Of a stretch of 64,000 bases of DNA, positions 2,990-33,802 are shown one piece after another. Source of the stretch: Spirochaetia bacterium (GTDB lineage Bacteria; Spirochaetota; Spirochaetia; CADAEX01); NCBI GenBank assembly GCA_017642445.1, contig JAGCPA010000077.1, positions 13,661-77,660 on the forward strand, written 5' to 3'. Numbering within the stretch: the stretch's first letter is position 1; every line of letters begins with the position of its first letter. The notes beneath the pieces are model-generated. The model did no database searches. It saw only the letters and a list, made by a program, of their open reading frames with translations, and was not told the origin of the DNA. Both the position numbers and the translations under genes were made by a program.

Positions 2990-3031
2990 ATTTTCCTCTG
3001 AAAAAGTTAAAAATTTACCAAAATTTGATTT

Positions 3032-3061
3032 ATTATACGCTTTTTGAGGAATATATGTCAA
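3032..3061 (-). promoter_or_regulatory. Near-consensus sigma70-type promoter for ilvBN
   Basis: The minus strand reads TTGACA, an 18-nt spacer, then TATAAT, about 40 nt upstream of ilvB ATG 2989. The leader is too short for a T-box or attenuator. Confidence 0.6.
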
Positions 3062-3082
3062 GAAAATTTACCGATTTTTGCT

Positions 3083-3436
3083 TTAGACTTGGGTTTTCTC
3101 TTTCAGATTCTCAAGAATTTTCCGTTTTTTCAGGGCATCTGCATAGACGGCGTTGGCCTCTGCCTTCTCTTTTTTTATAATCTCAAGCTGTTTTTCCAGC
3201 TCCAGCGCCTCTTCCTTGAGAGATGTGAGATGAGCCTGCAGAGGGGCAAGGCTCCCAGGAGTCTGGATGGAGCTTACAAAATCGGCATAGAGCTGTGACT
3301 GTTTTTTCTTTATTTTATCAAGGTCGTTCTGAAGCTGGTTGAGCCGGGCATCGATATCGGAAAGCTTTGCGGCGGCATACCGCTCATCCATGATTCGGAT
3401 CTCTAAAAGCTTTTCCAGCCGGAACTCTTTCTTCAT
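3083..3436 (-). CDS. fliJ: Flagellar/T3SS export chaperone-stalk protein FliJ-like (coiled coil)
   Basis: 117 aa and all-helical. The N-terminus FRLEKLLEIRIMDERYAAAKL is typical of FliJ. It sits immediately after fliI with a 4-nt overlap. Confidence 0.65.
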   Translation of the reverse strand: MKKEFRLEKLLEIRIMDERYAAAKLSDIDARLNQLQNDLDKIKKKQSQLYADFVSSIQTPGSLAPLQAHLTSLKEEALELEKQLEIIKKEKAEANAVYADALKKRKILENLKEKTQV

Positions 3437-4749
3437 CGGATGCCTGCTATGGACATAGCGTTATCCATGCTCTCCTGGAAGGAGGCCTTCTCCTTGAGAT
3501 CCTGGATAAGGAACCGGTCTATCATATCATGCTTCTCTATAGCAAGGTCTATGGCTCTGTTTGTGCCACGGTTGTACGCACCCACATTAATAAGATCCTC
3601 TGCATCGCGGTAGACAGCCATGTGATGCTTTATCACCTCGGCAGCCTTGAGCAGGTTGGCAGGAGCAACACGCACAGCGCTTCTGGAGACAGACTGAAGC
3701 ACATCCACAGCCGGATAGTGGCCTGCCTCGGAAAGTTTTCTCGAGAGGATTATATGGCCGTCCAGGAAGCCCTCTGCGCTGTCTGAGATAGGCTCGTCCC
3801 TGTCATCCCCTTCCACCAGCACAGTGAAGAAGCCTGTGAGGGTTCCCTTGTCTGAGTTCGCACACCGCTCAAGAAGCTTGGGCATCTCGGTGAATACCGA
3901 CGGCGGATAGCCTCTGGTCGCAGGAACCTCTCCGATAGAGAGACCTATCTCGCTCTGAGCCCTGGCAAAACGGGAAAGGGAATCGAAGAAAAGCATGACA
4001 TTCTTTCCCTGGTCCCTGAAATGCTCTGCCACAGTTACAGCAGTATAAGCGCCGCGGACACGGCAAACCGGGGATGTGTCAGAGGTTGATACAACCACAA
4101 CTGACTTGGCCAGCTTCTCCTCGCCAAGGTCGTTCCTTATGAACTCCCCCACCTCGCGGCCACGCTCGCCTACAAGCGCTATGACATTTATATCGGCCTG
4201 GGTGTTCCGGGCTATCATTCCTAAAAGTGTGGTCTTACCTGTACCTGCTGGAGAGAATATTCCAAGCCGCTGGCCAAGCCCTACTGTAAGGAGGGAATCT
4301 ATGGAGCGGACTCCCGTCTCCACGCTCTCCTGCACCATCTGGCGGTTAAGGATATCAGGCGGGGTGCCGAATACAGACTTTTTCTTTCCGAAGCCTATCG
4401 GCCCCTTGCCGTCCAACGGATTTCCCATGCTGTCTATTACGCGTCCCAACAGCGAGTTGGTCATAGGTATTCCGAGGCTGCGTCCTGTGGCCACCACCTG
4501 GCATCCCATCTGGATTCCCACAGCGCTGCCATAGGTTATTAGACGCACCTTGGAGCCGTCTATTGCAACAACCTCAGCCGGCACAGGGTTCTCTTTCTCG
4601 GGCAGATATATCTGGCACAGCTCTCCTACCATGGCCTGTGGCCCTATGCTCTCTATCATAAAGCCTGTAACCTTGGTCACCATGCCTGTGTAGCGGCAGG
4701 GCTGTGAATTCTCTATTATCCGGACAAAACGCTCAAGATCACTCTTCAT
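3433..4749 (-). CDS. fliI: Flagellum-specific/T3SS ATPase FliI
   Basis: F1/V1-like ATPase with Walker A SPAGTGKTTLLGMIAR and Walker B VMLFFDSLSRFARAQSEIG. I prefer ATG 4749 (MKSDLERF), which has AGGAG 9 nt upstream. The ORF-track start is 4794. Confidence 0.9.
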   Translation of the reverse strand: MKSDLERFVRIIENSQPCRYTGMVTKVTGFMIESIGPQAMVGELCQIYLPEKENPVPAEVVAIDGSKVRLITYGSAVGIQMGCQVVATGRSLGIPMTNSLLGRVIDSMGNPLDGKGPIGFGKKKSVFGTPPDILNRQMVQESVETGVRSIDSLLTVGLGQRLGIFSPAGTGKTTLLGMIARNTQADINVIALVGERGREVGEFIRNDLGEEKLAKSVVVVSTSDTSPVCRVRGAYTAVTVAEHFRDQGKNVMLFFDSLSRFARAQSEIGLSIGEVPATRGYPPSVFTEMPKLLERCANSDKGTLTGFFTVLVEGDDRDEPISDSAEGFLDGHIILSRKLSEAGHYPAVDVLQSVSRSAVRVAPANLLKAAEVIKHHMAVYRDAEDLINVGAYNRGTNRAIDLAIEKHDMIDRFLIQDLKEKASFQESMDNAMSIAGIR

Positions 4750-5398
4750 GCAGGCTGCTCCTGATAGAAGAAAGCTGGGTGGAAATCCTGGCATCTACGC
4801 CCCCTGTGGTGCTCTCCACCACACAGCCACCCTGCTCCACCGAATGGTCTTCGGCTATTTTTATAGATTCCACCTTGTCGAACATATTAAGAAGAAGGGA
4901 ACGGTATTCCCTTGCCACATCCATATCGGCCAGGTTCACACGGAGCACCACAGGACTCTTCTCCTTGAGGAGCCCAAGGGCATACTCGGCATTGCGCACC
5001 GCAATATCACGCTGCTTTGCACACGACGCCTTCACAACCTTTCCCGCAATCTCAACTGCCAGGTCAACGATATCGTGCTTGGCATTCTCAAGGATATTCC
5101 GCTTGCACTCATCGACATCGCGGGTTATGACCTCGAGCTGGCTTATAAGTCTGTTAACCTGGTCAAGCCCTTTCTCGAAGCCTTCCTTCTCCCCTTTTGC
5201 AAAGCCCTCTTTCTTTGCCTCTTCGTAGGCCTGGGTTCTGATTCTCTCGGCCTCGGACTTTGCCTCCTGACGGATCCGTGCGGCATCGCCGCTGGCTTTC
5301 TCCAGCTGCACCATAAGGTTTCTGCTCTCTGCCTGGACATCTATATGGGAAGCTCTTTCCAGCTCTTCCACATCTATGGCTTTGAATACATCTGTCAT
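4739..5398 (-). CDS. fliH: FliH-like ATPase regulator/peripheral stalk
   Basis: 219 aa with an E/K-rich coiled N-terminal half and a C-terminal FliH/SctL-like domain (VVLRVNLADMD...GGCVVESTTGGVDARI). It lies between fliG and fliI. Confidence 0.7.
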   Translation of the reverse strand: MTDVFKAIDVEELERASHIDVQAESRNLMVQLEKASGDAARIRQEAKSEAERIRTQAYEEAKKEGFAKGEKEGFEKGLDQVNRLISQLEVITRDVDECKRNILENAKHDIVDLAVEIAGKVVKASCAKQRDIAVRNAEYALGLLKEKSPVVLRVNLADMDVAREYRSLLLNMFDKVESIKIAEDHSVEQGGCVVESTTGGVDARISTQLSSIRSSLHEE

Positions 5399-6375
5399 TT
5401 AGGGCCTCCTGCTTTTCTGACGGCAGCCAGTATCTGGCGCTGGGACTCCTCTATCTCCTTGAGTCTTATAGGCTTGGAATCGGGCTGGGATAGAATCTGG
5501 GAACGTTCCGGATCAAGGTTTGCCAATACTTTCTCGCGTGCCTCGTAGCTTGCTGTCCTCAATGCTTTTGCTATGTCATCGGATGAGACACCTGCAAGGA
5601 CAGAGCACAGGATCTCATCATCTATCTTGACTAAATCATCAAACACAAGGATCTGGGATGCCAGTTCCTCTGAGAGTTTTGTGTTGCTCCGGCGGATATC
5701 GGAAAGGATGTCGGCACCTGTCTTCCTGTCCATCCGGTTCAGGATATTCATCATGCTCTCTATACCGCCAGCCTCCTTGTAGCCGGAAAGGTCAAAGAGG
5801 GCAAGCTTCTTCTCAAGCACTTTCTCCACGTTGCGCAGCATCTCGGGAGATGTCCTGTCCATGACTGCAATGCGCCGTGCCACATCGGACTGGATGCTTC
5901 TGGGCAGTGCCGAAAGGATTCTGGATGCGGCCTCGGGCTCAAGATATGCAAGAACCAGGGCAATAGTCTGGGGCTGCTCGAACTTGAGGAACGATACAAG
6001 GCGGTCGCTCTGCACACGCTTGACAAATTCAAACGGCTTCTTGTGGAGGAATACCGATATCTTCTGGATAATCTCGTCGGCCCGCTTCTCTCCGAAGGCC
6101 TTGGAGAGCAGTTTCCTGGCATAGTCCACTCCGCCTGTGGCAATGTAGTTCCGGGCTGTGGCCAGCTCTCTGAACTCGTAGAGCACCTGGGAGAGAGTGT
6201 TGGAATCCACCTTCTCGGTAGAGGCTATCTGATATGAGAGTATCTCCACATCCTGGGCATTAAGATGTCCGAAGACCTGTGCAGACGGCTCGCATCCGAG
6301 CGCCAGGAGGAATATGGCGGCTTTTTCTTTGCCTGAAAGCTTTTTTATGGCTGCAGCTTTCTTCAGTCTTGGCAT
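5395..6375 (-). CDS. fliG: Flagellar rotor/switch protein FliG-like
   Basis: 326 aa. FliG signatures span the N, middle and C domains (SGKEKAAIFLLALG, EQPQTIALVLAYLEPEAASRIL, GGIESMMNILN, LVFDDLVKIDD). The C-terminal torque-helix region is atypical (see findings). Confidence 0.85.
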   Translation of the reverse strand: MPRLKKAAAIKKLSGKEKAAIFLLALGCEPSAQVFGHLNAQDVEILSYQIASTEKVDSNTLSQVLYEFRELATARNYIATGGVDYARKLLSKAFGEKRADEIIQKISVFLHKKPFEFVKRVQSDRLVSFLKFEQPQTIALVLAYLEPEAASRILSALPRSIQSDVARRIAVMDRTSPEMLRNVEKVLEKKLALFDLSGYKEAGGIESMMNILNRMDRKTGADILSDIRRSNTKLSEELASQILVFDDLVKIDDEILCSVLAGVSSDDIAKALRTASYEAREKVLANLDPERSQILSQPDSKPIRLKEIEESQRQILAAVRKAGGPK

Positions 6376-6376
6376 A

Positions 6377-7321
6377 TCAATCCTCCGACAGCCAGGTTTT
6401 TACAAGGCGTGCAACCTCTTCCGGGTTCTGGGATGCCATGTTGCGCGCATCTTCCAGTATGGCCTCTTTCTTCTTCTTTCCGAAAATCAGGATAAGGATT
6501 ACGGCAAGCAGCACCACTGCCAGAGAGACAGCGGCTGCATATGCGATGTTGCGGCCTACAGGAAGCCTGTCAAAGATATCCTGCTCTGCCGGAACCTGTG
6601 TCAAAGGCTTTACTGCAGGGATGGCTGGGGAGGTGCCCATTCCTGCATAGTCCGAGAGAAGATTTCCGGCTGTGTCGCTGATAGTTATATTCTTGTCCTC
6701 AAGCCCTTCCACCGCAAACTTGACCAGCTTGATTATTCCCTGGATCTTCTTTGGGTTTGATACAATGTCAGAGCCTGGATGGGGGGTGATGATAATGGAG
6801 GCAGAGACATCCTTCTGGTCTTCGGTGAAAAGTGATTTTTCCGGCATAACCAGAGTTATTCTGGCCCGGTCTACATCGGCAAGGGCCTCGATATGCTGCT
6901 CAAGGCTCAGGCTGATTGCCCGCCGAAGGTTCACGTTGCGCTCGAAGTCGGTGGTGGTCCACCTGTCCATCTTGAACACATCCCATGGGGAGGCATTCTT
7001 CGGAACCAGGTCCTCTCTGACAAGCAGGGCAATCATCTTCTGGGCATCGCCCTTGCTCTGGAGATAGATCATTCCGTCGGAAATCTTGTGGGAAACTCCC
7101 TCCTGATCAAGACGGAGCGATATGGCGTTGAGCAGTGTGCTGTCTGCAATTTTTGCTGTGAACAGCGGAGTCATGAAAGATGTGGAGCCCGCTGAGCTTA
7201 TGAAGACAATAAGGGCAAAGGCAATTGCCAATATCAAGATAATCGAGACTTTCTGTGCCTGCCTAAGCTTTTTCCAGAATTGTCCTATACTGCTGAAAAA
7301 CTCCTTTATTTGTCCTTTCAT
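6377..7321 (-). CDS. fliF: Short FliF/SctJ-family ring protein (RBM1+RBM2 only, TM2 and FliG-binding tail retained)
   Basis: 314 aa. Layout is TM1 (~25-43), then the YscJ/FliF-type region (LVREDLVPKN..WDVF..DRWTTTDFERNVNLRRA..LE..I..L..V..A.I.LVMPEKSLF), TM2 (~259-280), and the C-terminal NPEEVARLVKTWLSED. Canonical FliF is ~530-570 aa. A strong SD (GGGAGGGG) precedes the start. Confidence 0.75.
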   Translation of the reverse strand: MKGQIKEFFSSIGQFWKKLRQAQKVSIILILAIAFALIVFISSAGSTSFMTPLFTAKIADSTLLNAISLRLDQEGVSHKISDGMIYLQSKGDAQKMIALLVREDLVPKNASPWDVFKMDRWTTTDFERNVNLRRAISLSLEQHIEALADVDRARITLVMPEKSLFTEDQKDVSASIIITPHPGSDIVSNPKKIQGIIKLVKFAVEGLEDKNITISDTAGNLLSDYAGMGTSPAIPAVKPLTQVPAEQDIFDRLPVGRNIAYAAAVSLAVVLLAVILILIFGKKKKEAILEDARNMASQNPEEVARLVKTWLSED

Positions 7322-7354
7322 AACCCCTCCCTGATCTAAAAGAACTTATATAAT

Positions 7355-8662
7355 CTACAAGATATATCTTGCCAGATCCTGATCCCCTAACACGCCGTTC
7401 AGCCTGTCGTCCACATACTGCGGCGTAACTGTTATAGTCTGTCCCTTGAGCTCCGGTGCTGCGAAGGAGACCTCCTCCAGAAGCAGCTCCATTATTGTAT
7501 GCAGCCGTCTTGCCCCGATGTTCTCGGAGCCTGCATTGAGCTCCTGTGCTATATATGCGATCCGTTTCACTGCCTCGTCGGTGAACTCAAGCTTGACATC
7601 TTCGGTCTCCATAAGAGCCTTGTACTGCTTTATAAGCGCGTTCTGAGGCTGTGTCAGAATCTTCTCGAACTCTGCTGCCTGCAGCGGCTCAAGCTCCACC
7701 CGAAGCGGGAACCGTCCCTGAAGCTCAGGGATAAGGTCCGAAGGCTTGCTCATGTGGAACGCACCTGCGGCAATGAAAAGGATGTGGGTTGTGTCCACCA
7801 TTCCGAACTTGGTGTTCACCTTGCACCCTTCAACTATAGGCAGGATATCCCGCTGGACTCCTTCTCTGGAGACATCTGCACCGCTGGTGTTCTGCCTTCC
7901 AGCCACCTTGTCGATCTCGTCTATGAATACGATGCCCATCTCCTGGGTCCGTGTCTTCGCAATCTCTGCAACCTTGTCGCTGTCTATCAGCTTGTCAATC
8001 TCTTCCTCTAGCAGAATCTCGCGGGCATGCTTCACTGTGGTGCGCCGTTTTTTCTTCTTGTTGCCCATTACTCCGGTTATGCTTCCGAAGTTGATGCCCA
8101 TATCCTCAAGGCCTGTGCCGGCAAAGATCTCCATGGGCTGGAAACCTGCTCTGGTCACATCTATCTCTATCTGGTGCTCCTCAAGCTCCCCGTCCCTGAG
8201 CTTATTACGGAACTTCTCGCGGAGCTGTTCCTCTTTGTTTCCCGGGAGCAGAAGATCAAGGAGCTGCTCCTCCACCCTTACCTTCGCATCCTCCATGACA
8301 GTGCTCCGCATCTCGGTCTTGACCATATTCACAGCTACTGCCATAAGATCGCGGATTATGGACTCAACATCGCGGCCCACATAGCCTACTTCGGTATATT
8401 TGGTAGCCTCCACTTTTACAAACGGAGCACCAGAGAGCTTTGAGAGGCGGCGGGCAATCTCGGTCTTTCCTACACCGGTTGAGCCGATCATGATGATATT
8501 CTTAGGAATAACCTCTTCCCGCAATGACTCGGGCAGCATCTTCCGCCGCACCCGGTTCCGCAGTGCCATGGCCACAGTGCGCTTCGCCTTGTCCTGGCCG
8601 ATTATATATTTATCAAGTTCCTCTACTATCTGCTTTGGAGTAAGCTTATCAAAATCAAGCAT
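7355..8662 (-). CDS. hslU: ATP-dependent protease ATPase subunit HslU
   Basis: TPKQIVEELDKYIIGQDKAKR, Walker A GSTGVGKTEIARRLS, and IVFIDEIDKV give a full-length HslU pattern. Confidence 0.95.
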   Translation of the reverse strand: MLDFDKLTPKQIVEELDKYIIGQDKAKRTVAMALRNRVRRKMLPESLREEVIPKNIIMIGSTGVGKTEIARRLSKLSGAPFVKVEATKYTEVGYVGRDVESIIRDLMAVAVNMVKTEMRSTVMEDAKVRVEEQLLDLLLPGNKEEQLREKFRNKLRDGELEEHQIEIDVTRAGFQPMEIFAGTGLEDMGINFGSITGVMGNKKKKRRTTVKHAREILLEEEIDKLIDSDKVAEIAKTRTQEMGIVFIDEIDKVAGRQNTSGADVSREGVQRDILPIVEGCKVNTKFGMVDTTHILFIAAGAFHMSKPSDLIPELQGRFPLRVELEPLQAAEFEKILTQPQNALIKQYKALMETEDVKLEFTDEAVKRIAYIAQELNAGSENIGARRLHTIMELLLEEVSFAAPELKGQTITVTPQYVDDRLNGVLGDQDLARYIL

Positions 8663-24228: not shown

Positions 24229-26705
24229 TGCAACCACATGAACTGCCGGTCTACCGGCACAAAGAGACAATATTAGAGTACATAAAAAATAATAAAGTAA
24301 TAGTAATAGAGAGCCCCACAGGAAGCGGAAAGACAACACAGCTTCCTATGATTTTATACGAGGCAGGGTTCTCCACAAACGGAATAATCGGCGTGACACA
24401 GCCACGGCGCATAGCAACCCTTTCGGTATGCGACTACATAGCGCGCCAGCTGGGCTGCGAGGTTCCAGGCACTGTGGGCTACAAGATGCGGTTCGCAGAC
24501 CAGACCATATCAAGCACCAAGATCAAGATAATGACAGACGGCATACTGCTGCAGGAGATAAAGTTCGACCCATACCTGTCGCAGTACAGCTGCATAATTG
24601 TGGACGAGGCACACGAGCGGAGCCTTAACATAGACTTCATACTCGGCCTTCTGAAGAGGATCTCCAATGTGCGGGACGACTTCAAGATAATCATATCGTC
24701 GGCAACCATAAACACATCGGTCTTCTCCGAATACTTCGGCGGCTGTCCCGTAGTCCACATCGACTCAAAGATGTATCCGGTGGGAGTTGTCTACGACCCA
24801 GTGCCTGAGGATGCAAGACCCGAGGAGCTCCTGCTCAAGGTGGGGGACATCGTGGAGCGGTGCATCAGGGAGGAGCGCGAAGGAGACATCCTTATATTCC
24901 TTTCGGGCGAGAAGATGATAAAGGACTGCATAACTATGCTGGATGCAAGCCCAGTGCGGGACAAGCTTATGCTGCTGCCGCTTTACGGAAGGCTCTCCAA
25001 GGAGGAGCAGGAGCGGATCTTCATAGAGACACCGCCCGACAAGACCAAGGTGATAGTTGCAACCAATATCGCAGAGACCAGCGTCACCATTGATGGAATA
25101 ACCACAGTTATAGACTCAGGCCTTGCCAAGATAAACACCTACAACACACGGACATTCACATCATCGCTTTTAGAGGCACCTATCTCAAAGGCATCGTGCA
25201 ACCAGAGGAAAGGAAGGGCCGGAAGAACACAGTCGGGCACATGCTACAGGCTCTACACCAAGCAGAGCTTCGAGAGCCGTGTCATGTTCACCAAGGAGGA
25301 GATCTACCGCACCGACCTGTCAGAGGTTATCCTGCGTATGGCAGAGCTGGGGATCACAGACTTCGAGTCCTTCGACTTCATCTCTTCCCCTGAGAAGAAC
25401 GGCATAAAGAGCGCTATCGAGACTCTTGTCATGCTGGATGCCCTCAACGACGACAACACACTGACAAAGATAGGCGAGATGATGGCGGCCTACCCTCTTC
25501 TGCCACGGCTGTCCAGAATGCTGGTGGAAGCTATCCTCAAGTATCCCGACGTCATCGAGGAGACTATCATAGCTGTCACATTCCTCTCCACCAACAGCCC
25601 GTTCCTGCTGCCGCAAGGTATGGAGATGGAGGCGCGCAAGGCACACCATTCCTTCCGGAGCAAGTATGGCGACTTCGTATCCTACATCGATATATACGAC
25701 TCCTTTGTGAACGCCGAGCACAAGGAGGAGTTCTGCGACTCAAACTTCCTGGACCTGAAGGTTATGAACGAGATTGTCAGCATCAAGGAGCAGCTTGAGG
25801 ACATTGTGGGGGAGCAGGGAATCCCTGTATCTGGCGGCGGCAGTGTCGAGAACTACCTGAGCGCCGTTGCAAAGGGCCTTATACAGTTTGTATGCGTCCG
25901 CACCGGAAAAGGTGCATACTCAAGCCTTACCGCCGAGCGCATCTTCATCCACCCAGGCTCTGTGATGTTCCACGAGAACCCCGATTTCATCGTAGCCGGC
26001 GAGATAGTGCGCACCAGCCGCATGTATGCCCACTCTGTATCGCCTCTCAACACCGAGATACTCAAGAGGATATCGCCTGAGCTTGCCGCAAAGCTGACCA
26101 CCGCCATCCAGAAGGAGGCCAAGGGCAAGGAGAAGGCAGACAACGCATGGCAGATCAAGATAGGCAACCAGTTCTTCGAGCTCAAGAAAGGCAAGGGAAA
26201 CAAGAACAAGACTGCGATACTCCAGTGGGAGAATCTGGCCAAGGTGATCAAGTCGGGCTCGTTCGTTGTTGACCCGCAGTCCAAGGATCTCAAGTGCAAG
26301 GTTATGTGGCACGACATGGAGTTCCTTACAAATGAGAAGCTGCGGGATGTGAAGCGGATGATCCCATATATCCACCCCGAGCGGAAGTTCAAAGAGGAGC
26401 TGCCTTTTGTGGGAAGCATAAGCGCGAACAAGCACTTCGACCAGCTGGCCGACTGCATGGATATACTCCTCTGGCTGTGCCCAAAGAAGAAGAACGGCAA
26501 GGTGCTGGGCTTCATGACACTGCACACCGACGAGAGGGGCAACTACTGGATCAAGTCGGACCGGAGCTTCGACAACTCGGTGCTCACAACACTGGGAAGC
26601 CTCGAGATGCTTATGGACCAGGTGCCTGAAAAGGCAAACCCCAAGAGCATAAATAAGGTGAACTCAACCTACCGGTTCTTCAGCGAGATACTGAAAAAGT
26701 ACTAA
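24228..26705 (+). CDS. DEAH-box ATP-dependent helicase, HrpA/HrpB family
   Basis: Motif I is ESPTGSGKTTQLP, motif II is IVDEAHERS, then SATIN, TNIAETSVTIDG and QRKGRAGR. Its start overlaps the hisS stop (TAATG). Confidence 0.85.
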   Translation: MQPHELPVYRHKETILEYIKNNKVIVIESPTGSGKTTQLPMILYEAGFSTNGIIGVTQPRRIATLSVCDYIARQLGCEVPGTVGYKMRFADQTISSTKIKIMTDGILLQEIKFDPYLSQYSCIIVDEAHERSLNIDFILGLLKRISNVRDDFKIIISSATINTSVFSEYFGGCPVVHIDSKMYPVGVVYDPVPEDARPEELLLKVGDIVERCIREEREGDILIFLSGEKMIKDCITMLDASPVRDKLMLLPLYGRLSKEEQERIFIETPPDKTKVIVATNIAETSVTIDGITTVIDSGLAKINTYNTRTFTSSLLEAPISKASCNQRKGRAGRTQSGTCYRLYTKQSFESRVMFTKEEIYRTDLSEVILRMAELGITDFESFDFISSPEKNGIKSAIETLVMLDALNDDNTLTKIGEMMAAYPLLPRLSRMLVEAILKYPDVIEETIIAVTFLSTNSPFLLPQGMEMEARKAHHSFRSKYGDFVSYIDIYDSFVNAEHKEEFCDSNFLDLKVMNEIVSIKEQLEDIVGEQGIPVSGGGSVENYLSAVAKGLIQFVCVRTGKGAYSSLTAERIFIHPGSVMFHENPDFIVAGEIVRTSRMYAHSVSPLNTEILKRISPELAAKLTTAIQKEAKGKEKADNAWQIKIGNQFFELKKGKGNKNKTAILQWENLAKVIKSGSFVVDPQSKDLKCKVMWHDMEFLTNEKLRDVKRMIPYIHPERKFKEELPFVGSISANKHFDQLADCMDILLWLCPKKKNGKVLGFMTLHTDERGNYWIKSDRSFDNSVLTTLGSLEMLMDQVPEKANPKSINKVNSTYRFFSEILKKY

Positions 26706-27097
26706 AGGACAGAAACTCCCAGAGATTTTGCCAGAGCCTTGAACTTCTTGTCCGTGGTCAGAAGAGTTGCCCCGTTGTGCCGGGCAAGCACCAAATAGAA
26801 CATATCGTAGATGCTGTGTCCCAGCCGTATTCCCTCGTGCAGGGCTTCTATTGCCAGCTCGCTGGTGTCAGTGTATTCATCCACCATCTGCAGGAGATAA
26901 GCGAGAGTCTTCCTTGCATTCTCCTCATCTACCGCACCATTCCGTGCATATTTCCAAAGCACATTGGTCACCTCAGAGTCAAACAAAGTGGGTGCAATAA
27001 CTTTCTCTGCACCAGCAACCGCATTCATGAAGAGACTATATTTAGGCCCATGAAAAGCAATCTCAAAGGCAGCGCAGGTATCTAAAACATAAATCAT
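26702..27097 (-). CDS. vapC: PIN-domain toxin, VapC family
   Basis: 131 aa. The acidic PIN residues fall in VLDT, DSEV, YDMFY and TTD contexts. A 4-nt overlap links it to the upstream small gene. Confidence 0.85.
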   Translation of the reverse strand: MIYVLDTCAAFEIAFHGPKYSLFMNAVAGAEKVIAPTLFDSEVTNVLWKYARNGAVDEENARKTLAYLLQMVDEYTDTSELAIEALHEGIRLGHSIYDMFYLVLARHNGATLLTTDKKFKALAKSLGVSVL

Positions 27098-27366
27098 CTG
27101 AGCCTGCCTCCCCTACTGAGACCATCCCTGTCCTGCCGCACCAGATCAGCTGGAGAAGGGGAATGGGAAGGCAGATGAAGTTCCAGAGCATCAAGATCAT
27201 TCAGCACCCTGCGGCGCCGTGCGCCGTTCTTGTTATCATCTGCGTTTAATATGGAAGTAAGCAGGAAAATAACCTGCTGGGGAACTGTACGGTTCTGCTC
27301 CTTGGCCACCTGAGCCAGAATCTGATATGTCTCCTGGGGAAAATCCCGGACCTGTAATAATGCCAT
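27094..27366 (-). CDS. VapB/FitA-like antitoxin (RHH-type)
   Basis: MALLQVRDFPQETYQILAQVAKEQNRTVPQQVIFLL is the N-terminus of an RHH antitoxin. ATG 27366 has AAGGAG upstream, whereas the ORF-track start is 27396. Confidence 0.6.
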   Translation of the reverse strand: MALLQVRDFPQETYQILAQVAKEQNRTVPQQVIFLLTSILNADDNKNGARRRRVLNDLDALELHLPSHSPSPADLVRQDRDGLSRGGRLR

Positions 27367-27375
27367 AAATGCTCC

Positions 27376-27407
27376 TTGTATGCAAAATGATATCAACTTG
27401 CATACAA
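27376..27407. promoter_or_regulatory. Perfect 10-bp inverted repeat, candidate VapBC autoregulatory operator
   Basis: TTGTATGCAA, 12 nt, then TTGCATACAA. It lies immediately upstream of the vapB SD and start. Confidence 0.5.
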
Positions 27408-27433: not shown

Positions 27434-28210
27434 TTGTCAAATTTCCAACTTTTTTCTCCAAAGTCAAATCAAAATGAAGATTTCATGTTCCAATTAACCA
27501 AAGATGAAACAGAAATACTATCGAGGTCAAAAATTTTGACCTCGATAATGCAGACAGAAGGCATGAGAGGTGGCCGCGTATATCTCCCACATGCTTTTAC
27601 AGAACAGGGCATCTATATGCTTATGACGGTTCTAAAGGGAGAATTGGCAACTAGGCAAAGCATTGCTTTAGTCCGACTATTCAAGCAGATGCGCCACTAC
27701 TTTGCCGAAAATGCTGGAGTAATCAGCAGATTATCTTCCACAGAAACAAAATTGATTGAGCACGATCAAAAAATTAACACTCTTTTCACCCTCATGAACA
27801 AATATAAGATTGAGGATAAACAGGGTGTATTTGTCCAGGGGCAGATATTCGATGCATACATTGCTTTTCAAAATATAATTCAAAAAGCCCAGAAAGAAAT
27901 TATACTGATTGACAATTATATTGACCTGACTGTGCTGGAAAGGCTCTCCAAGAAGAATCCAAATGTGCAGGTTATCATTTACACTCAGCCCAACACTCAA
28001 ATATCAAATATTGATATAAACAAGTTCAATACCCAATACCCTACTCTAACCATAAAGCATACAAAAAAAATGCATGACCGCTTCCTGATAATTGACAACG
28101 CCGAGATTTATTTCATCGGAGCATCTGTAAAAGATTTAGGGAAGAAATGCTTTGCATTTATGCAACTTGAAGATGCACAGTGGATTAGAACAGTGCTCAA
28201 TGCTTTATAA
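27434..28210 (+). CDS. ORF6N-family protein lacking the N-terminal part of the ORF6N/KilA-N-like domain, with a C-terminal HDRFLIID...GAS (PLD-like) region
   Basis: NEDFMFQLTKDE...GRVYLPHAFTEQGIYMLMTVLKGELATRQSIALVRLF matches the distal half of ORF6N domains. The frame opens only at 27419. The start is uncertain, either TTG 27434 or ATG 27485. Confidence 0.6.
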   Translation: MSNFQLFSPKSNQNEDFMFQLTKDETEILSRSKILTSIMQTEGMRGGRVYLPHAFTEQGIYMLMTVLKGELATRQSIALVRLFKQMRHYFAENAGVISRLSSTETKLIEHDQKINTLFTLMNKYKIEDKQGVFVQGQIFDAYIAFQNIIQKAQKEIILIDNYIDLTVLERLSKKNPNVQVIIYTQPNTQISNIDINKFNTQYPTLTIKHTKKMHDRFLIIDNAEIYFIGASVKDLGKKCFAFMQLEDAQWIRTVLNAL

Positions 28211-28322
28211 TCACCACTCGATATAGGGCACGCCCAGCTGCTCCTCAAGCCACAGCGCTATCTCGCCCGCTATGTTCTCCAGCTTGGTATCCATGGCCAA
28301 AGTATACCACAGAAATAAAACA

Positions 28323-28351
28323 TTGACATCTCAAACCATGACAATTATATT
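28323..28351 (+). promoter_or_regulatory. Sigma70-type promoter for the RiPP precursor gene
   Basis: TTGACA, a 17-nt spacer, then TATATT. An AGGAG SD lies 7 nt before ATG 28372. Confidence 0.55.
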
Positions 28352-28371
28352 TACTATATAAGGAGATAAAT

Positions 28372-28608
28372 ATGCCAATCGATAAGACAAAAATAACAAA
28401 AGAGATGCTTGAGAAAGCAGCAAAGTGCAAGACTGCTGATGAACTGATTGCTCTGGCCAAGTCCGAAGGCGTTGACCTTACAAAAAATGAAGCTGTGGCT
28501 TATCTTGAAGAACTCCAGAATGTGGAACTGGATGAAAAGGCCCTGGATAAGGTAGCTGGCGGTGGCTGTTATCCAGATTGTCCAAAAGATTATTGCTTTG
28601 AAAATTGA
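28372..28608 (+). CDS. Nif11-like-leader RiPP/bacteriocin precursor with a Gly-Gly motif and a 13-aa three-Cys core
   Basis: 78 aa. The leader ITKEMLEKAAKCKTADELIALAKSEGVDLTKNEAVAYLEEL...ELDEKALDKVAGG fits the Nif11-type leader pattern. The core is (G)CYPDCPKDYCFEN. Confidence 0.7.
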   Translation: MPIDKTKITKEMLEKAAKCKTADELIALAKSEGVDLTKNEAVAYLEELQNVELDEKALDKVAGGGCYPDCPKDYCFEN

Positions 28609-28667
28609 TGCTTGACAGATAAGCAATTAAAGTCTCTTTTACTATTTATAACTGATTATGCGTTATA

Positions 28668-28693
28668 AAGCCCCTTAATCGGGGCTTTTTTTA
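28668..28693 (+). terminator. Rho-independent terminator after the RiPP gene
   Basis: AAGCCCC, loop ttaatc, GGGGCTT, followed by a T-run. Confidence 0.7.
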
Positions 28694-28696
28694 TTT

Positions 28697-28904: not shown

Positions 28905-29105
28905 TTATAAAAGTCTTTCCATTGCGTCATTTTCATCGACAAACACAGTCTGCTCCTCGCCGCAACATATGGTATGAACTTCATAATTAATATCAGGGAA
29001 CCCAGCGCCTGCAAAATTTACATATTCAACTTTTGCATTATGCACACATTGCTCTTTATCACAATACCAATAGATAGTATCCCCTGCTCTGAACTTTGTC
29101 ATCAT
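28905..29105 (-). CDS. 66-aa Cys-containing protein of unknown function, translationally coupled to the DUF2075 gene
   Basis: An ATGA overlap (29102-29105) joins it to the upstream gene. Its AT-rich composition matches the partner gene. I recognise no family for it. Confidence 0.55.
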   Translation of the reverse strand: MMTKFRAGDTIYWYCDKEQCVHNAKVEYVNFAGAGFPDINYEVHTICCGEEQTVFVDENDAMERLL

Positions 29106-31150
29106 ATTATTTCTAGCCCAATCTGCCTTAAATATTCATAGGTTGGATCATAATACTCTAGTTTTCGTGTTTTATCTTTATTATTTCCTTCTGGAACAAC
29201 TATTATCATACCTTGGCGAGCTCTGGTTAATAAAACCCTATATGCATTCAGCTGATATTTTTTATCATCTTCTGCATTAATATGAAGCCATTTACCGCCT
29301 CTAAAAGCATAGTTTTGCCAACCGTTTCTTGAATACCGAAAATCTCCATCCCAAATCACACATGCCCAATCCAGCTCAAGACCTTGAATATCAAATTCTG
29401 TCGCTGCATCTTCAAGGAAAAGTGATGAACGAATATCCTCTTTGTCAGCTAAAAACCAATGTACTGTATCAGGATTTTGGCGAACATCAATAGCTAATGG
29501 CTTAAGTCTATTAGCTTTTGAAGATACTATCATTCCATAACGTTCGGAACCTCTTGCTTTTTTGACCAACCATTCTTTTGCTTTATCAAGTGAACGCGTT
29601 AGAATAATAGGATAAGTTGTCTTAATTTCATCATGTAAATTTTTAGCTTTTTGAATATTTAAATCAAGTAATTCATGAATAAAGTTTGATACTTTTTCTG
29701 ACCTGAATGAACGCATTGAAACAGCCAAATGTAAAGCTGAGTTTTCGACAACACTTTTATTATTTAATAAAAGTTGTTTTAATTTTCCGTCTGCATATTC
29801 TTTTTCTGTTAATTGATTTGAAATATATATTTTCCAATTAGGAAATCTTTCATCAAGAGAACGAATCCATTCAGAGATGCCAGCTTCTCCTGTATTTATT
29901 TCTTGCCCTCCACCAACTAGGCAAATAATTACTGCCCAATCAGGACGCTGGTCCAAAGACCAGATAAGGAACTCTGGTTCTGAAAATGGAAAACTATTTA
30001 TATGTTTTCTTCTTTTTAGCCAACGAAACAATTGCTCTTGAGTCCAAGCCCTTTGGGCCTCATCAAATATTGCAACATGTTCCACTTCTGCATATCCATC
30101 ACTCTTATTTTTCTTTATTTTTGTTTCATCGATTTCTATAGCTTTATTAACAATTGGAAATTTTATTTTTTCAAGAAATGTATTTCGATAATGATGAACA
30201 ATTTGAATAAAAGCACGTACCTCACGTCTCGCATCAGTAATCGAATATTTTTTCTTATTTTTCTGTTCCTCCTGTCGTTTTTTATCTCGAGCTAAAGCCT
30301 CAGAAAGAACACTTACAAGTGGTTGATTTCCAGAAAGATAAACTGCTAAATCTTTCTTATCATATTGTTCTATAGCAACTTGCAATCCGACTAATGTTTT
30401 TCCAGCACCAGGAACACCTGTCACAAAACAAATAGCTTTTTCTTTGCTTTGTCTTGTCTTTTCAATTATCTCTAATATGTATTTATTAGTTTTTACTAAA
30501 TTTTCTGCAGACGCCTCTGTTTTAATAATATCTTCAACAGTATGATTATTAAATAATACACTTGCTGCTTGAATAATTGTTGGAGTTGGGGAATATCTGC
30601 TGTTTGCCCATTCTAGAATATTATCACAGAAATTGTTTTCAGTTTTTTCTAGTATTTCCTTAATAATTGGATAAAGACTTTCTTCGTTAGAACAAATTGG
30701 TTCATAAACCTTATCATCATAATAACATGATAGATATTTATGTGATCGTTCTTTTGCCTTAGTTGCAACTAAAATTGGAACAATTACTTTATCATGACTT
30801 GCTTCATGGAAATTTTTAAGATCTAAAGCATAGTCCCAAACCTGTTCAATATCACTACGCAAATAATCTTTTTTACCGACTTTAAATTCCAATACAAATA
30901 TTATTCCATGGAAAACTAAAATAACATCAGCTCTTTTTCCTAGTCGAGGAATTGAATATTCAAATAATATTCGACCTTCAGAAAAATGGTTAACAATGTT
31001 TTTCATTATGATTATTTCATCAAGCCATGCTTCCATTTGTAGAGTATTAGAATCAAATGTATTTTCTCTTGCTATTTTCCCTAATATTTCATTTTCTGAT
31101 TGAGAAAGGAATTTAGAAAAAGAATCTTTGTAATAATATCGTTCCAACAT
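29102..31150 (-). CDS. DUF2075-type (Schlafen-helicase-like) P-loop NTPase with an N-terminal PD-(D/E)xK-like nuclease module
   Basis: 682 aa. The N-terminus has E64...D75...E88-F-K90 (GKRADVILVFHGIIFVLEFKVGK). Walker A is VTGVPGAGKT and Walker B is VAIFDEAQRAW. The C-terminal YRVLLTRARQGMIIV resembles the UvrD_C_2 region. Confidence 0.85.
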   Translation of the reverse strand: MLERYYYKDSFSKFLSQSENEILGKIARENTFDSNTLQMEAWLDEIIIMKNIVNHFSEGRILFEYSIPRLGKRADVILVFHGIIFVLEFKVGKKDYLRSDIEQVWDYALDLKNFHEASHDKVIVPILVATKAKERSHKYLSCYYDDKVYEPICSNEESLYPIIKEILEKTENNFCDNILEWANSRYSPTPTIIQAASVLFNNHTVEDIIKTEASAENLVKTNKYILEIIEKTRQSKEKAICFVTGVPGAGKTLVGLQVAIEQYDKKDLAVYLSGNQPLVSVLSEALARDKKRQEEQKNKKKYSITDARREVRAFIQIVHHYRNTFLEKIKFPIVNKAIEIDETKIKKNKSDGYAEVEHVAIFDEAQRAWTQEQLFRWLKRRKHINSFPFSEPEFLIWSLDQRPDWAVIICLVGGGQEINTGEAGISEWIRSLDERFPNWKIYISNQLTEKEYADGKLKQLLLNNKSVVENSALHLAVSMRSFRSEKVSNFIHELLDLNIQKAKNLHDEIKTTYPIILTRSLDKAKEWLVKKARGSERYGMIVSSKANRLKPLAIDVRQNPDTVHWFLADKEDIRSSLFLEDAATEFDIQGLELDWACVIWDGDFRYSRNGWQNYAFRGGKWLHINAEDDKKYQLNAYRVLLTRARQGMIIVVPEGNNKDKTRKLEYYDPTYEYLRQIGLEII

Positions 31151-31208: not shown

Positions 31209-31595
31209 ATGAAGATCATCCATGTAGTAGCAGCCATCATTATCAAGGACCACAAGCTCTTTGCCACCCAGCGGGGGTACGGCGAGTTCAAGGACGGCTG
31301 GGAGTTTCCCGGTGGCAAGGTGGAGCCTGGTGAGACTCCCCAGGATGCCCTAAAAAGGGAGATCCGGGAAGAACTGGCCACCGAGATAGAGGTGGGCGAC
31401 TACATCAGTACCATCGAATACGACTACCCCACTTTCCACCTCTCCATGGAATGCTATGCCTGCTCAATAATTTCCGGCAGGTTGGAACTTCTGGAGCACG
31501 AGAACGCAGCCTGGCTCTCAAAAGAGACTTTGCGTACAGTCTCTTGGCTCCCCGCCGACTTAAGTATTCTAGATAAAGTGGAAAAATTGCTTTAA
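31209..31595 (+). CDS. NUDIX hydrolase, MutT/NudG-like
   Basis: The Nudix box is GGKVEPGETPQDALKREIREELATEI. The protein is 128 aa. Confidence 0.9.
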   Translation: MKIIHVVAAIIIKDHKLFATQRGYGEFKDGWEFPGGKVEPGETPQDALKREIREELATEIEVGDYISTIEYDYPTFHLSMECYACSIISGRLELLEHENAAWLSKETLRTVSWLPADLSILDKVEKLL

Positions 31596-32393
31596 TTACC
31601 TCCCTATCGCTTTATCGAACCGGTCCAGCACCTCCATCATGTCTGGCATGATATAGTCCCGGCACTCGGCCATCAGCTTCTTGGGCATTCCGTAGAAAGC
31701 CTCGACAATACCGCCGGTGATGCAGGCCTGGGTGTCGGCATCGCCGCCTAAGGATACAGCAAGCCTTATGGCATCCTCGTAGTCCCTGCTGTCCAGGAAG
31801 GCCACTATCGCCTCGGGCACTGTCCCCTGGCAGGTCTCGTCGAACTCGTAGTCAGGCCTTATCTGGTCGCAGGTGCGTTCCAGGTTGTAGTCGAACTCCT
31901 TCTGGATGTAGTCCTTTATCTCATCCTTGCTCTTTCCTGTGCGGGCCAGGAAGATAGCTGCCGCTGTGGCATCTGCCCCGTCAATCCCGAAGGGATGGTT
32001 GTGGGTCACCTCCGCAGTCCACCGGGCCACCTTCCTGGTTGTCTCCAGTGTATCGTAAAGCCAGCCTGCAGCCGACACCCGCATGGCAGAACCGTTGCCA
32101 TAGCTGCCGTAAGGCTCGGTCATATCGGAGAAAAGCCAGTGGTGGAACCGTCCGCCGTACCCTGCGAAGGGATACTTTGCTCCCCACTTCTTGAAGCTCT
32201 TGATCAGGGCCTTCTTCACCTCTTCTTCCCCGGGATTCTTCCCGAACATCATAAGGGCTTCGGCCACCGCTATGGTCATCACCGAGTCGTCGGTGAACAT
32301 GGAATCGTCGGTTAAAAGAGGGAAATCTGTTGTCTCTATGGGGTCAAACTCGTAGGGAGATCCTACGATGTCGCCTAAAATTGCTCCGTACAT
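31596..32393 (-). CDS. ADP-ribosylglycohydrolase family protein
   Basis: MYGAILGDIVGSPYEFD, GNGSAMRVSAAGW and LGGDADTQACITGGIVEAFYG are the ARH/DraG-family motifs. Confidence 0.9.
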   Translation of the reverse strand: MYGAILGDIVGSPYEFDPIETTDFPLLTDDSMFTDDSVMTIAVAEALMMFGKNPGEEEVKKALIKSFKKWGAKYPFAGYGGRFHHWLFSDMTEPYGSYGNGSAMRVSAAGWLYDTLETTRKVARWTAEVTHNHPFGIDGADATAAAIFLARTGKSKDEIKDYIQKEFDYNLERTCDQIRPDYEFDETCQGTVPEAIVAFLDSRDYEDAIRLAVSLGGDADTQACITGGIVEAFYGMPKKLMAECRDYIMPDMMEVLDRFDKAIGR

Positions 32394-32506: not shown

Positions 32507-33802
32507 ATGGAACAGCGGCTCAAAGTTTCTTCCTTTCTAAAGTTCTGGGCACCACTTGCGCTCATGCAGGTCATCATGAACTTCGAGTTCCCTGCCATAA
32601 TCGCCTTCATATCCCGCATAGGAGATGCCAAGGAGAACCTGGCCATATTCACTGTGGTCACCTCTCTTTCCCTGCTCCTTGAGGGTGTCATAATCCAGAT
32701 GCTCTCCGCCGCCACAGCGCTCTGCGACAGCTGGAACAACTACCAGAGGGTAAAGCATTTCCTTCTTATAGTGCTGGGTCTGCTTGTCATCACCCATCTG
32801 TTCTGCATTCTTCCGGGGCCTTTCGACTTCATTGCCACCACGCTGCTCAAGCTGGAGCCTGATTATATAGAAAGCACACGGATAGCGTTCCTCCTTATGC
32901 TGCCCTGGGTACCGACCATAGGGGTGCGCCGTCTGTGGCAGGGTGTCCTGATACGCAACGGGAAGACCGGCCTGGTATCCATGATAACTGTCATAAGGAT
33001 AATTGTCTGCATAGCAGCGCTTGCAGTCATGCTCTCCTTCCGCAATGTGCCGGGCTGCTATGTGGCTTCCATCGCATTGAGCCTTGGTGTGACTTCCGGT
33101 GCCATATCTGCATATATCTTTGTCCGCCCGATCCTCAAGAAGCTGCGCGGTATAACATCGCCAAAGACCATGAGCTGGAAAGACCTCACCCTGTTCTATC
33201 TGCCGCTTGCCATGACATCGTTCGTGACCGAGGCAGACCGCCCTATAATCGCCGCAGGTATCTCGAGGGGACTTCTCCCCACAGAATCGCTTGCCGGATG
33301 GGGCGAGGTGATCTCCATAATCGCAGTCTTCCGCTCCCTCTGCTACTCGACACAGGAGGCATCCATAGCCCTTTTCAGCACCAAAGAAAATAATCAGGTG
33401 ATCCGCAAGGCTGTGTTCAGGATCTGCGCAGTTGTCTGCTCTGTATGCTTCTTCTGCATCTTTGTGCCGCCGGTGCGGGATTATATACTCATCAATATAT
33501 CAGGTCTTACCCAGGAGCTTGCCCAGATCTGCAGGGTGCCCCTCATGGTGATCTCGCTTACCCTATTCACATTCCCGGTGGTCGCATGGCTCCGCTCCTT
33601 GAACATCTACAACAGGACAACCCGCAATATCGGCTGGGCTGTCACTCTGAACCTGATAGCAGTGACCCTGGCAGTTGTTGTCATGGACAACTGCTTCTCC
33701 ATGCTGGGTCTTATGATCGGCGCAATAAGCTACATCTTCGCTATGACAGCTGAGTCCGGCTACTTGACATTCAAGAGAATAAGTAGTAATAATTCTTATT
33801 AA
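32507..33802 (+). CDS. Polytopic membrane protein, MATE/MOP-superfamily-like
   Basis: 431 aa with about 12 hydrophobic segments. The family call rests on the general pattern only. Its stop is 1 nt before the Fur-family gene. Confidence 0.5.
   Translation: MEQRLKVSSFLKFWAPLALMQVIMNFEFPAIIAFISRIGDAKENLAIFTVVTSLSLLLEGVIIQMLSAATALCDSWNNYQRVKHFLLIVLGLLVITHLFCILPGPFDFIATTLLKLEPDYIESTRIAFLLMLPWVPTIGVRRLWQGVLIRNGKTGLVSMITVIRIIVCIAALAVMLSFRNVPGCYVASIALSLGVTSGAISAYIFVRPILKKLRGITSPKTMSWKDLTLFYLPLAMTSFVTEADRPIIAAGISRGLLPTESLAGWGEVISIIAVFRSLCYSTQEASIALFSTKENNQVIRKAVFRICAVVCSVCFFCIFVPPVRDYILINISGLTQELAQICRVPLMVISLTLFTFPVVAWLRSLNIYNRTTRNIGWAVTLNLIAVTLAVVVMDNCFSMLGLMIGAISYIFAMTAESGYLTFKRISSNNSY

Follow-up and report, generated by a model that had tools for sequence, protein, structure and literature searches.

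The prochlorosins of Prochlorococcus and Synechococcus are produced from scattered ProcA precursors with Nif11 leaders and hypervariable cores, many of which lie far from the single ProcM and are processed in trans. They are lanthipeptides, made by LanM from Ser/Thr and Cys. In ranthipeptide systems (freyrasin/PapB, thermocellin and SCIFF/CteB), a radical S-adenosylmethionine (rSAM)/SPASM enzyme with an N-terminal extension of ~100 aa works with short Cys-rich cores. The N11P precursors with NHLP export (TIGR03798 with TIGR03794/03796/03797; Haft, Basu & Mitchell 2010, PMC2887384) have a leader of ~64 aa with a Nif11-like helical region and an ELxxxxLxxVAGG end, and form large paralogous families with variable cores. 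In this study, we analysed a stretch of 64,000 nt from a Spirochaetia bacterium (contig JAGCPA010000077.1, positions 13,661 to 77,660; the whole stretch is called the window, and positions are counted within it). We consider it probable that the small gene at 28372-28608 on the plus strand is a functional, separately transcribed precursor of a peptide that is made on the ribosome and modified after translation (RiPP), that it belongs to a large rumen family, and that it is processed in trans by an rSAM/SPASM enzyme and a C39 exporter encoded elsewhere.

The gene is like the N11P systems in its leader and in its paralogous family with variable cores, and the homologous loci pass the TIGR03796 and TIGR03797 cut-offs and include an HlyD-like fragment. 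Unlike those systems, the window protein scores under the TIGR03798 cut-off, the partner enzyme is an rSAM/SPASM protein rather than LanM or a cyclodehydratase, and the hosts are anaerobic rumen Spirochaetota, Negativicutes and Clostridia rather than cyanobacteria or nitrogen fixers. The architecture that we infer for the family is that of the prochlorosins, except that each genome would hold several paralogous rSAM/SPASM enzymes instead of LanM. The rSAM/SPASM extension and the short Cys-rich cores are shared with the ranthipeptides, and the C-x-x-D/N spacing of the window core recalls the repeated Cys...Asp units of freyrasin. In contrast to ranthipeptides, the leader is of the Nif11 and not the SCIFF type, the hallmark is a Cys-aromatic pair, some partner cores lack Cys, and the family is known from genes alone. 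The models TIGR04064 and TIGR04103 ('nif11-like peptide radical SAM maturase') describe the same concept, an rSAM with Nif11-leader precursors, in a different rSAM lineage. Literature searches on the family, DUF7005, CefB/Clo7bot/OhkG and rumen ranthipeptides found nothing specific to this family; the 2026 Hungate1000 bacteriocin survey counted ranthipeptides through the SCIFF model TIGR03973 only, and not the family of the window.

Reading of 28372-28608(+) gives the 78-aa protein MPIDKTKITKEMLEKAAKCKTADELIALAKSEGVDLTKNEAVAYLEELQNVELDEKALDKVAGGGCYPDCPKDYCFEN*, with the stop codon at 28606-28608, so the 78-aa open reading frame (ORF) described in an earlier note on this DNA, made from the sequence alone, is real. 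The gene and its signals are as follows.

28299-28696, plus strand: precursor cassette (promoter, ORF, 3' untranslated region (UTR) and terminator), preserved as a unit between related rumen spirochaete genomes
28323-28351, plus strand: sigma-70-type promoter-like site TTGACA-17-TATATT, with 11 of 12 consensus matches, the same in the window and in the related loci L019, L020 and L006
28361-28365, plus strand: Shine-Dalgarno sequence AGGAG, 6 nt ahead of the ATG, by direct reading of the sequence
28372-28563, plus strand: Nif11-like leader, residues 1-64, ending in ...LDKVAGG, by TIGR03798, Pfam Nif11 and a leader hidden Markov model (HMM)
28564-28605, plus strand: predicted core peptide GCYPDCPKDYCFEN, 14 aa, with the units CYPD / CPKD / CFEN, by translation
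28667-28696, plus strand: intrinsic-terminator-like stem-loop (28667-28688, G+C-rich) and T-run

The putative promoter consists of TTGACA at 28323-28328 and TATATT at 28346-28351 with a spacer of 17 nt. The terminator has an 8-bp stem with 5 G-C pairs, followed by TTTTTATTT, and is kept in the relatives, save for one stem substitution in L006. All three expression signals of the earlier note, namely the promoter, the Shine-Dalgarno sequence and the terminator with its T-run, were recovered.

The earlier note had also proposed a Nif11-type leader ending in Gly-Gly, and profile searches support it at scores under the cut-offs. TIGR03798 matched with E=2.7e-5 and 24.3 bits (cut-off 32.3), with profile positions 17-68 of 68 on residues 10-64, and the alignment reaches the final profile position at the Gly-Gly. 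Pfam Nif11 (PF07862) matched with E=3.8e-4 and 21.1 bits (cut-off 23.8). NCBI gives homologues with 69-76% identity the name 'Nif11-like leader peptide family RiPP precursor', and those with 69-96% identity have precomputed PF07862 hits or NCBI names that include 'Nif11 family protein'. The C-terminal leader segment ELDEKALDKVAGG fits N11P motif 2, ELSDEELEAVAGG, as defined by Haft et al. 2010 (PMC2887384). The double-glycine motif ELxxxxLxxVAGG with a short variable core after it is present in the window as ...VELDEKALDKVAGG followed by GCYPDCPKDYCFEN, and G63 and G64 are invariant in alignment A1. Two other peptide classes were not supported. The ComC profile (E=0.045, 14 bits against 20.4) and the Bacteriocin_IIc profile (E=0.23, 11.9 bits against 27.1) matched the Gly-Gly region only and under their cut-offs, and the leader has 64 aa rather than the ~20 of a class II double-glycine bacteriocin or ComC-type pheromone. 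The lanthipeptide or prochlorosin class was rejected on the core GCYPDCPKDYCFEN, which is without Ser or Thr. No Lan enzyme was present among the recurrent or annotated neighbour genes of the fetched loci, and it is rSAM/SPASM rather than LanM that adjoins the homologous precursors, in agreement with the earlier note's exclusion of a lanthipeptide.

The three C-x-x-(D/N) units noticed before are present as C66YPD, C70PKD and C75FEN. The core boundary had to be corrected: a core of 13 aa (nt 28567-28605) had been given, and the sequence reads ...VAGG-G-CYPD. Since G64 is the last residue covered by the Nif11 leader profile and paralogues differ at residue 65, we place the core at 14 aa, GCYPDCPKDYCFEN (nt 28564-28605), provided that cleavage follows the conserved Gly-Gly. 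Among 13 distinct alleles of the window's core type, pN/pS was 0.06 in the core and 0.30 in the leader, and the synonymous sites of the core were near saturation (pS 0.85). In view of the core value, selection is strongest on the last 14 residues of the protein, which is the pattern expected of a mature peptide. The whole cassette (28299-28696) is 95-97% identical to that of L019 and L020, whereas the flanking core genes reach just 87-89.5%. The window, L019, L020 and L006 do not differ at all between about 28480 and 28650, a span that takes in the final third of the ORF and, counted from its start, 47 nt of the 58-nt 3' UTR; the remainder of the 3' UTR has five variable positions among the four. 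This excess conservation of the cassette suggests recent horizontal exchange, gene conversion or RNA constraint.

Transcripts of the gene were recovered from four rumen or gut metatranscriptome runs of four studies. Each run gave a contig of 265-285 nt spanning 28368/28388-28652, that is, from the Shine-Dalgarno/ATG, or from 16 nt inside the ORF, up to just before the terminator. The contig depths were 17.2, 6.2, 6.6 and 3.6, and the neighbour genes were absent or at 0-5. The contigs have four substitutions that match the L019-type allele. The coverage is limited to the cassette and therefore fits a short monocistronic RNA. Run X3 contained a metatranscriptome contig of 151 nt in which 28409 is linked to 28697 by 11 bases without a match and the 287 nt between are missing; it is probably an assembly chimera between paralogous leaders.

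A complete cluster around an allele closely related to the window core was found in Lachnospiraceae bacterium RUI304 (L030), with the following genes.

26-1471: 481-aa protein with a SPASM-like C-terminus
1521-1757: precursor with the core GCYPDCKNDFCFEN
1773-3314: rSAM/SPASM protein, 513 aa
3341-3838: HlyD-like fragment, 165 aa
3843-6008: C39-peptidase ABC transporter (TIGR03796, 889 bits, cut-off 853)
6011-8203: second ABC transporter

The core GCYPDCKNDFCFEN is a one-residue variant of a second allele of the window core and differs from GCYPDCPKDYCFEN at three residues, and its precursor gene lies 16 nt upstream of the rSAM/SPASM gene. An rSAM/SPASM maturase is thus encoded with the precursor for the L030 allele, as for many paralogues, and not in the window. 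C39-ABC genes are present in 12 fetched loci, including the spirochaete locus L031, whose exporter pair scores 993 bits with TIGR03796 (cut-off 853) and, for the partner, 754 bits with TIGR03797 (cut-off 709). An associated C39-peptidase ABC exporter of the TIGR03796/03797 type is therefore found in homologous loci and is absent from the window.

The rSAM enzymes of this clade have 498-560 aa, carry CxxxCxxC near residue 105, are 42-57% identical to the L030 enzyme and directly adjoin C-[YW] cores in at least 15 loci of spirochaetes, Selenomonadales and Acidaminococcaceae. Their scores were 157 bits with CefB (NF038107, cut-off 600), 138 with TIGR04463 (525), 122 with Clo7bot (600), 115 with PapB (NF047865, 340), 78 with TIGR04064 (519) and 62 with the SCIFF maturase (TIGR03974, 425). 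CefB, TIGR04463, Clo7bot and PapB are all within the six best NCBIfam matches of the L030-type rSAM. TIGR04103 was not among the 25 best matches listed for the clade and appeared only for a separate 461-aa clade (70 bits against 725). The nearest solved structure by sequence is the SCIFF/thermocellin maturase CteB (PDB 5WGG, E=1e-9). The clade is thus homologous to the characterised thioether families (PapB, SCIFF and CefB) and outside every curated family, and for this reason we do not file the window peptide as a ranthipeptide, only as likely to work alike. Context speaks for the ranthipeptide-like maturase that the earlier note had guessed: the L030 rSAM/SPASM gene is 16 nt from the precursor, and its best profiles are maturases of Cys-rich peptides.

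Some precursors directly beside one rSAM subclade (503-506 aa) have Cys-free cores rich in Tyr, Gly and Asp, namely DGGNAYSGSY, NAYSEGY, SSYSDGYGDE(TVK) and TGNNDGYATGYGAD (L106:6208-6432; L109:963-1178; L098:29-223; L099:210-443; L100:5012-5248). DUF7005 proteins of ~272-298 aa recur in the clusters (L025:10242-11060; L035:769-1587, 4476-5342; L061:7286-8176; L106:12608-13426), as does an uncharacterised protein of ~480-680 aa with a SPASM-resembling C-terminus and no CxxxCxxC (e.g., L030:26-1471).

The earlier note's statement that no rSAM, LanM or C39 transporter is encoded in the window was confirmed over all 64 kb. A tblastn search with the family rSAM, C39-ABC and accessory proteins found generic ABC ATPase domains only (~51-52.7 kb and 62.1-62.8 kb), and a regex search found a single CxxxCxxC motif, which lies within a 431-aa polytopic membrane protein. 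We then compared sequencing depths in five DNA metagenome runs (X24-X28) of two studies, in which the window was present at >96% of sampled words.

X24: window 12.8, rSAM contig 10.4, exporter contig 12.3
X25: window 28, rSAM contig 26.8, exporter contig 27.1
X26: window 12.5, rSAM contig 13.3
X27: window 42-50, rSAM contig 48.5, exporter contig 48.4
X28: window 12.8, rSAM contig 12.7, exporter contig 11.7

The depths agree with that of the window within ~20% for the rSAM contigs in all five runs and for the exporter contigs in the four runs examined for them (X24, X25, X27 and X28). Each of the five runs has one contig on which a leader gene is followed by an rSAM. These contigs were compared with the rSAM cluster L029 through the pattern of diagnostic variants, and in X24-X27 the variants that separate them from L029 agree with the 514-aa rSAM of L106 at 33 of 33 diagnostic positions. 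The X28 contig has the same mismatch count, gaps and joints as those of X24-X27; the 33-position comparison covered X24-X27. In each of the four runs examined for the exporter, one contig is collinear with both L031 exporter genes, the C39 end included.

Related genomes have a similar arrangement. In sister samples of the same studies (L106-L108), a cluster encodes DUF7005, a protein of 545 aa, roughly nine precursors and two or three rSAMs, which in the L106-type cluster have 514, 503 and ~517 aa. RUG13243 carries the cassette as an orphan (L020), with an rSAM cluster on a separate contig (L029). In RGIG6743, besides the cassette (L019), there is a second precursor (L050), after which an rSAM gene begins and is cut off by the contig end. 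Exact-protein look-ups gave no rSAM tie to the window genome: P0271 and P0272, the nearest relatives of the rSAM of RUG13243, stem from unrelated samples, P0274 is a protein of a different species, RGIG3334, and P0277 and L106-108 occur in sister samples, not in the same samples. We infer that the rSAM and exporter contigs belong to the genome of the window. This is strong circumstantial evidence, and not proof, that a maturase and an exporter are encoded elsewhere in that genome.

The L030 cluster and the co-abundant rSAM and exporter contigs make processing in trans the best explanation, and the following mechanism is proposed. The N-terminal recognition region of the dedicated rSAM/SPASM clade (~500-560 aa) would bind the leader, and the rSAM would cross-link the core, for which ranthipeptide-type thioethers derived from Cys are the likeliest chemistry. 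Thioether cross-linking of the core is the simplest assumption, given that the closest enzymes with a known function work on Cys-rich peptides and that the core repeats C-x-x-D/N. Cleavage after the Gly-Gly (G64) and secretion of the 14-residue product would then fall to an NHLP/Nif11-type pair of C39-peptidase ABC exporters (TIGR03796 and TIGR03797). The enzymes would be encoded in a main cluster elsewhere in the genome, with several rSAM genes and many paralogous precursors, and the window copy would be a satellite precursor processed in trans, as in the prochlorosin system. One rSAM of the genome would presumably accept the window core, and the product may be an antimicrobial or a signal.

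Several observations weigh against this mechanism. The TIGR03798 and PF07862 leader scores are under the curated cut-offs. Of ~7 lineages with the window's core type, an rSAM lies within 1.5 kb only in L030 (clear) and L032 (degenerate). Because no NCBIfam equivalog cut-off is reached, the chemistry of the clade is not readable by homology, and the Cys-less cores beside some rSAMs imply that at least part of the clade does something other than thioether formation. Co-abundance in five metagenomes of two studies is no proof of a shared genome. The 514-aa rSAM tentatively placed in the window genome shares just 50% identity with the L030 enzyme and adjoins a different core, so that its acceptance of GCYPDCPKDYCFEN is putative. 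Metatranscriptome contigs can hold contaminating DNA and give no strand information.

The family itself is large. A word-indexed search found 1,236 homologous protein clusters at E<=0.01, and an exhaustive search found 1,188 representatives at 50% identity with E<=0.001. Nearly all of the best 120 homologues have exactly 78 aa, and GCYPDCPKDYCFEN stays almost constant as the leader identity drops to 69%. The sources are overwhelmingly rumen or ruminant-gut metagenomes and metagenome-assembled genomes (MAGs), and the hosts are Spirochaetia, Acidaminococcaceae/Succiniclasticum, Selenomonadaceae and Lachnospiraceae; the window's core type is almost invariant in both Spirochaetota and Bacillota. 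A scan of GTDB species genomes gave 79 loci, and many genomes have at least five copies on separate contigs, for example Spirochaetia RGIG3334, the cultured Succiniclasticum ruminis DSM 9236, RUG140 and RUG643. In such multi-copy genomes the paralogues bear different cores. The further paralogues that the earlier note had suggested looking for are thus plentiful: the leader HMM found 322 leader-bearing ORFs in 109 fetched loci, often in arrays of 3-9, and with the conserved leader come 125 distinct short cores, the leader-conserved, core-divergent pattern of a paralogous family.

Cys is present in 101 of the 125 distinct short cores, and the other 24 are Cys-less. Tyr, Trp or Phe follows the first Cys in 66 of the 101 Cys cores, at a background aromatic frequency of 11%, and none of 2,000 shuffles reached this count; core position 2 holds the first Cys in 52 of the 101. 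C-x-x-D/N is also enriched (46/220 vs 28.6 +/- 4.6 in shuffles). All of these counts include related variants and therefore overstate independence. More than the CxxD repeat, it is a Cys-Tyr, Cys-Trp or Cys-Phe pair at the beginning of the core that forms the hallmark of the family. Core types that recur across phyla are VCW(D/T)NCP..., xxTCY(A/M)VDGC..., MCYSAGLGSNERC... and (E/K)CYMRTPLDDMM.

Two kinds of unusual relatives were observed. Proteins of 225-264 aa are fusions, in which the Nif11 leader, Gly-Gly and a short Cys-rich core are followed by a Hint/intein-like domain that starts CF(A/T)GDS(E/Q)VAVPGG (L029:2943-3722; L069:6-758; L026:9263-9982; L027:243-1022, 1633-2337, 2698-3375; L035:1914-2708; L040:8869-9573; L100:5575-6339, 6950-7654). 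Their precomputed Pfam domains are Hint and Hint_2, and their hosts are Spirochaetia and Selenomonadales. The L029 and L069 fusions, the two read to the end, have a truncated second Nif11-like segment after the Hint domain. A self-cleaving Hint domain right behind a RiPP core could leave a C-terminal thioester, and we know of no described precedent for a Hint domain in this position. The second kind consists of distant leader relatives (43-50% identity, L073-L093) from Clostridia, Oscillospiraceae and Bacteroidaceae-labelled MAGs, with C-terminal domains of 50-80 aa that contain many CxxC pairs (e.g., L082:9581-11257, L083:9071-12048). They form arrays of 4-7 beside a different rSAM clade (461-474 aa), whose best matches are NirJ/AhbD-like, StsB and WgkB, and beside paired C39-ABC genes.

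The Cys-aromatic hallmark is not explained by the thioether model. Another reading, which we regard as unlikely, is the following: the rSAM clade would define an undescribed RiPP class with a cross-link on the N-terminal x-Cys-(Tyr/Trp/Phe) instead of a freyrasin-type Cys-Asp thioether, and near-identical peptides such as GCYPDC(PK/KN)DYCFEN, spread to different rumen phyla through horizontally exchanged cassettes, would function as a signal shared between species or as an antimicrobial across the whole community. There is a rather small chance that the peptide is unmodified or has disulfides only, a double-glycine-leader bacteriocin of class II or a pheromone that is cut and exported by C39 with no rSAM action. 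Most loci with the window's core type are without an rSAM inside 10 kb, the family has C39 exporters, and ComC (E=0.045) and Bacteriocin_IIc (E=0.23) match weakly at the Gly-Gly, but both stay far under their cut-offs, three Cys is an odd number for disulfides, and the L030 precursor lies 16 nt upstream of an rSAM/SPASM gene with an exporter directly downstream. Moreover, satellite precursors distant from their enzyme are normal in Nif11-type families (PMC2887384).

Processing in trans, our preferred explanation, was one of two possibilities that the earlier note left standing; the other, a stranded relic left without processing or function after loss of its cluster, is very unlikely. A relic would suit a 64-kb window that lacks maturase and exporter and a low-GC variable island among mobile, defence-type genes. 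It does not suit an intact ORF, promoter and terminator, cross-species identities of 95-97% against 87-89.5% in the flanks, a core pN/pS of 0.06, representation above the neighbours in four metatranscriptomes, and rSAM and exporter contigs that track the depth of the window in four to five metagenomes. It is likewise very unlikely that the gene encodes an intracellular small Nif11-domain protein, uncleaved and unexported, with metal or Fe-S cluster binding by its Cys/Asp C-terminus. There are Nif11-domain proteins whose function is unknown (PF07862), the three Cys and several Asp might serve as metal ligands, and Fur and rubrerythrin are encoded among the genes two to four positions downstream. 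However, this neighbourhood is not kept in other lineages, the family is linked to rSAM and C39-ABC genes, and the Gly-Gly is invariant while the C-terminus is hypervariable among paralogues, including the 24 Cys-less cores, a pattern that suits a leader with a core, not a folded metal site. The antisense ORF of 90 aa that overlaps the precursor ORF on the minus strand (28354-28626) comes from the mechanical ORF list, and the chance that it is the real gene and the plus-strand ORF incidental is negligible. Antisense ORFs over precursors recur in 38 loci, a recurrence explained by the conserved plus-strand gene; it is the plus strand that agrees with the profile matches, the leader/core substitution pattern, the Shine-Dalgarno sequence, the promoter and the terminator. 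Tyr excision of the spliceotide type was also considered and rejected, because its motif is X-Tyr-Gly and its enzyme family is different.

On its own, the gene is an ordinary satellite RiPP precursor, and what makes it valuable is the access it gives to a large, transcribed, apparently uncharacterised and mainly rumen family. This family offers hundreds of short Cys-aromatic cores, an rSAM/SPASM clade outside the curated families, and identical cores across phyla under strong purifying selection. As there are cultured producers (Succiniclasticum ruminis DSM 9236 and Selenomonas sp. AB3002 and KH1T6), the chemistry and activity are directly testable. The case also illustrates that an absent neighbouring enzyme does not make a RiPP precursor a relic and that the co-abundance of metagenome contigs can locate trans-acting enzymes.

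The precursor lies in a low-GC island at ~27.3-31.15 kb (GC 0.27-0.42, against ~0.53), bordered by a PIN/antitoxin pair on one side and a NUDIX gene on the other.

26702-27396, minus strand: PIN toxin and antitoxin
27434-28210: ORF6N-domain protein (PADLOC PDC-S05)
28905-31150, minus strand: 66-aa gene and Schlafen-group-3/DUF2075 helicase (helicase PADLOC PDC-S41)
31209-31595: NUDIX protein (PADLOC PDC-S07)
31596-32393, minus strand: ADP-ribosylglycohydrolase

PDC-S05, PDC-S07 and PDC-S41 are candidate defence families of PADLOC. Compared with relatives, the ORF6N gene (27434-28210) and the 66-aa gene with the Schlafen-type helicase (28905-31150) are strain-specific insertions. In L020 (RUG13243), the cassette alone separates the antitoxin gene from the NUDIX gene; a Vsr endonuclease is instead encoded upstream of the precursor in L006 and L007, and L019 (RGIG6743) has ~8 kb of other DNA downstream of the cassette. 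By this comparison of gene orders, the precursor is an autonomous cassette of ~400 bp in a strain-variable hotspot of defence-type genes.

Schlafen-type (SLFN-g3/DUF2075) helicases also occur near precursor arrays in unrelated Acidaminococcaceae, both in L009 and L010 (6474-8474 in each), where they adjoin a FokI-type restriction-modification pair, and in L013/L015/L016/L017, ~6.5-7 kb downstream of the precursor. Helicase and precursor probably just share variable islands, with no functional link. An obligatory link between the precursor and the SLFN-type helicase was rejected, because L019 and L020 carry the cassette without the helicase.

Divergent from the precursor, a 27-codon ORF, MDTKLENIAGEIALWLEEQLGVPYIEW (28221-28304, minus strand), starts 19 nt upstream of the -35 box. 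It is kept in L020 and replaced in L019 and L006, and may be a small gene or the 5'-end remnant of a displaced gene. Further downstream, the 431-aa polytopic membrane protein mentioned above (32507-33802, plus strand) has no Pfam match and is encoded directly upstream of the Fur, rubrerythrin and DUF2703 genes.

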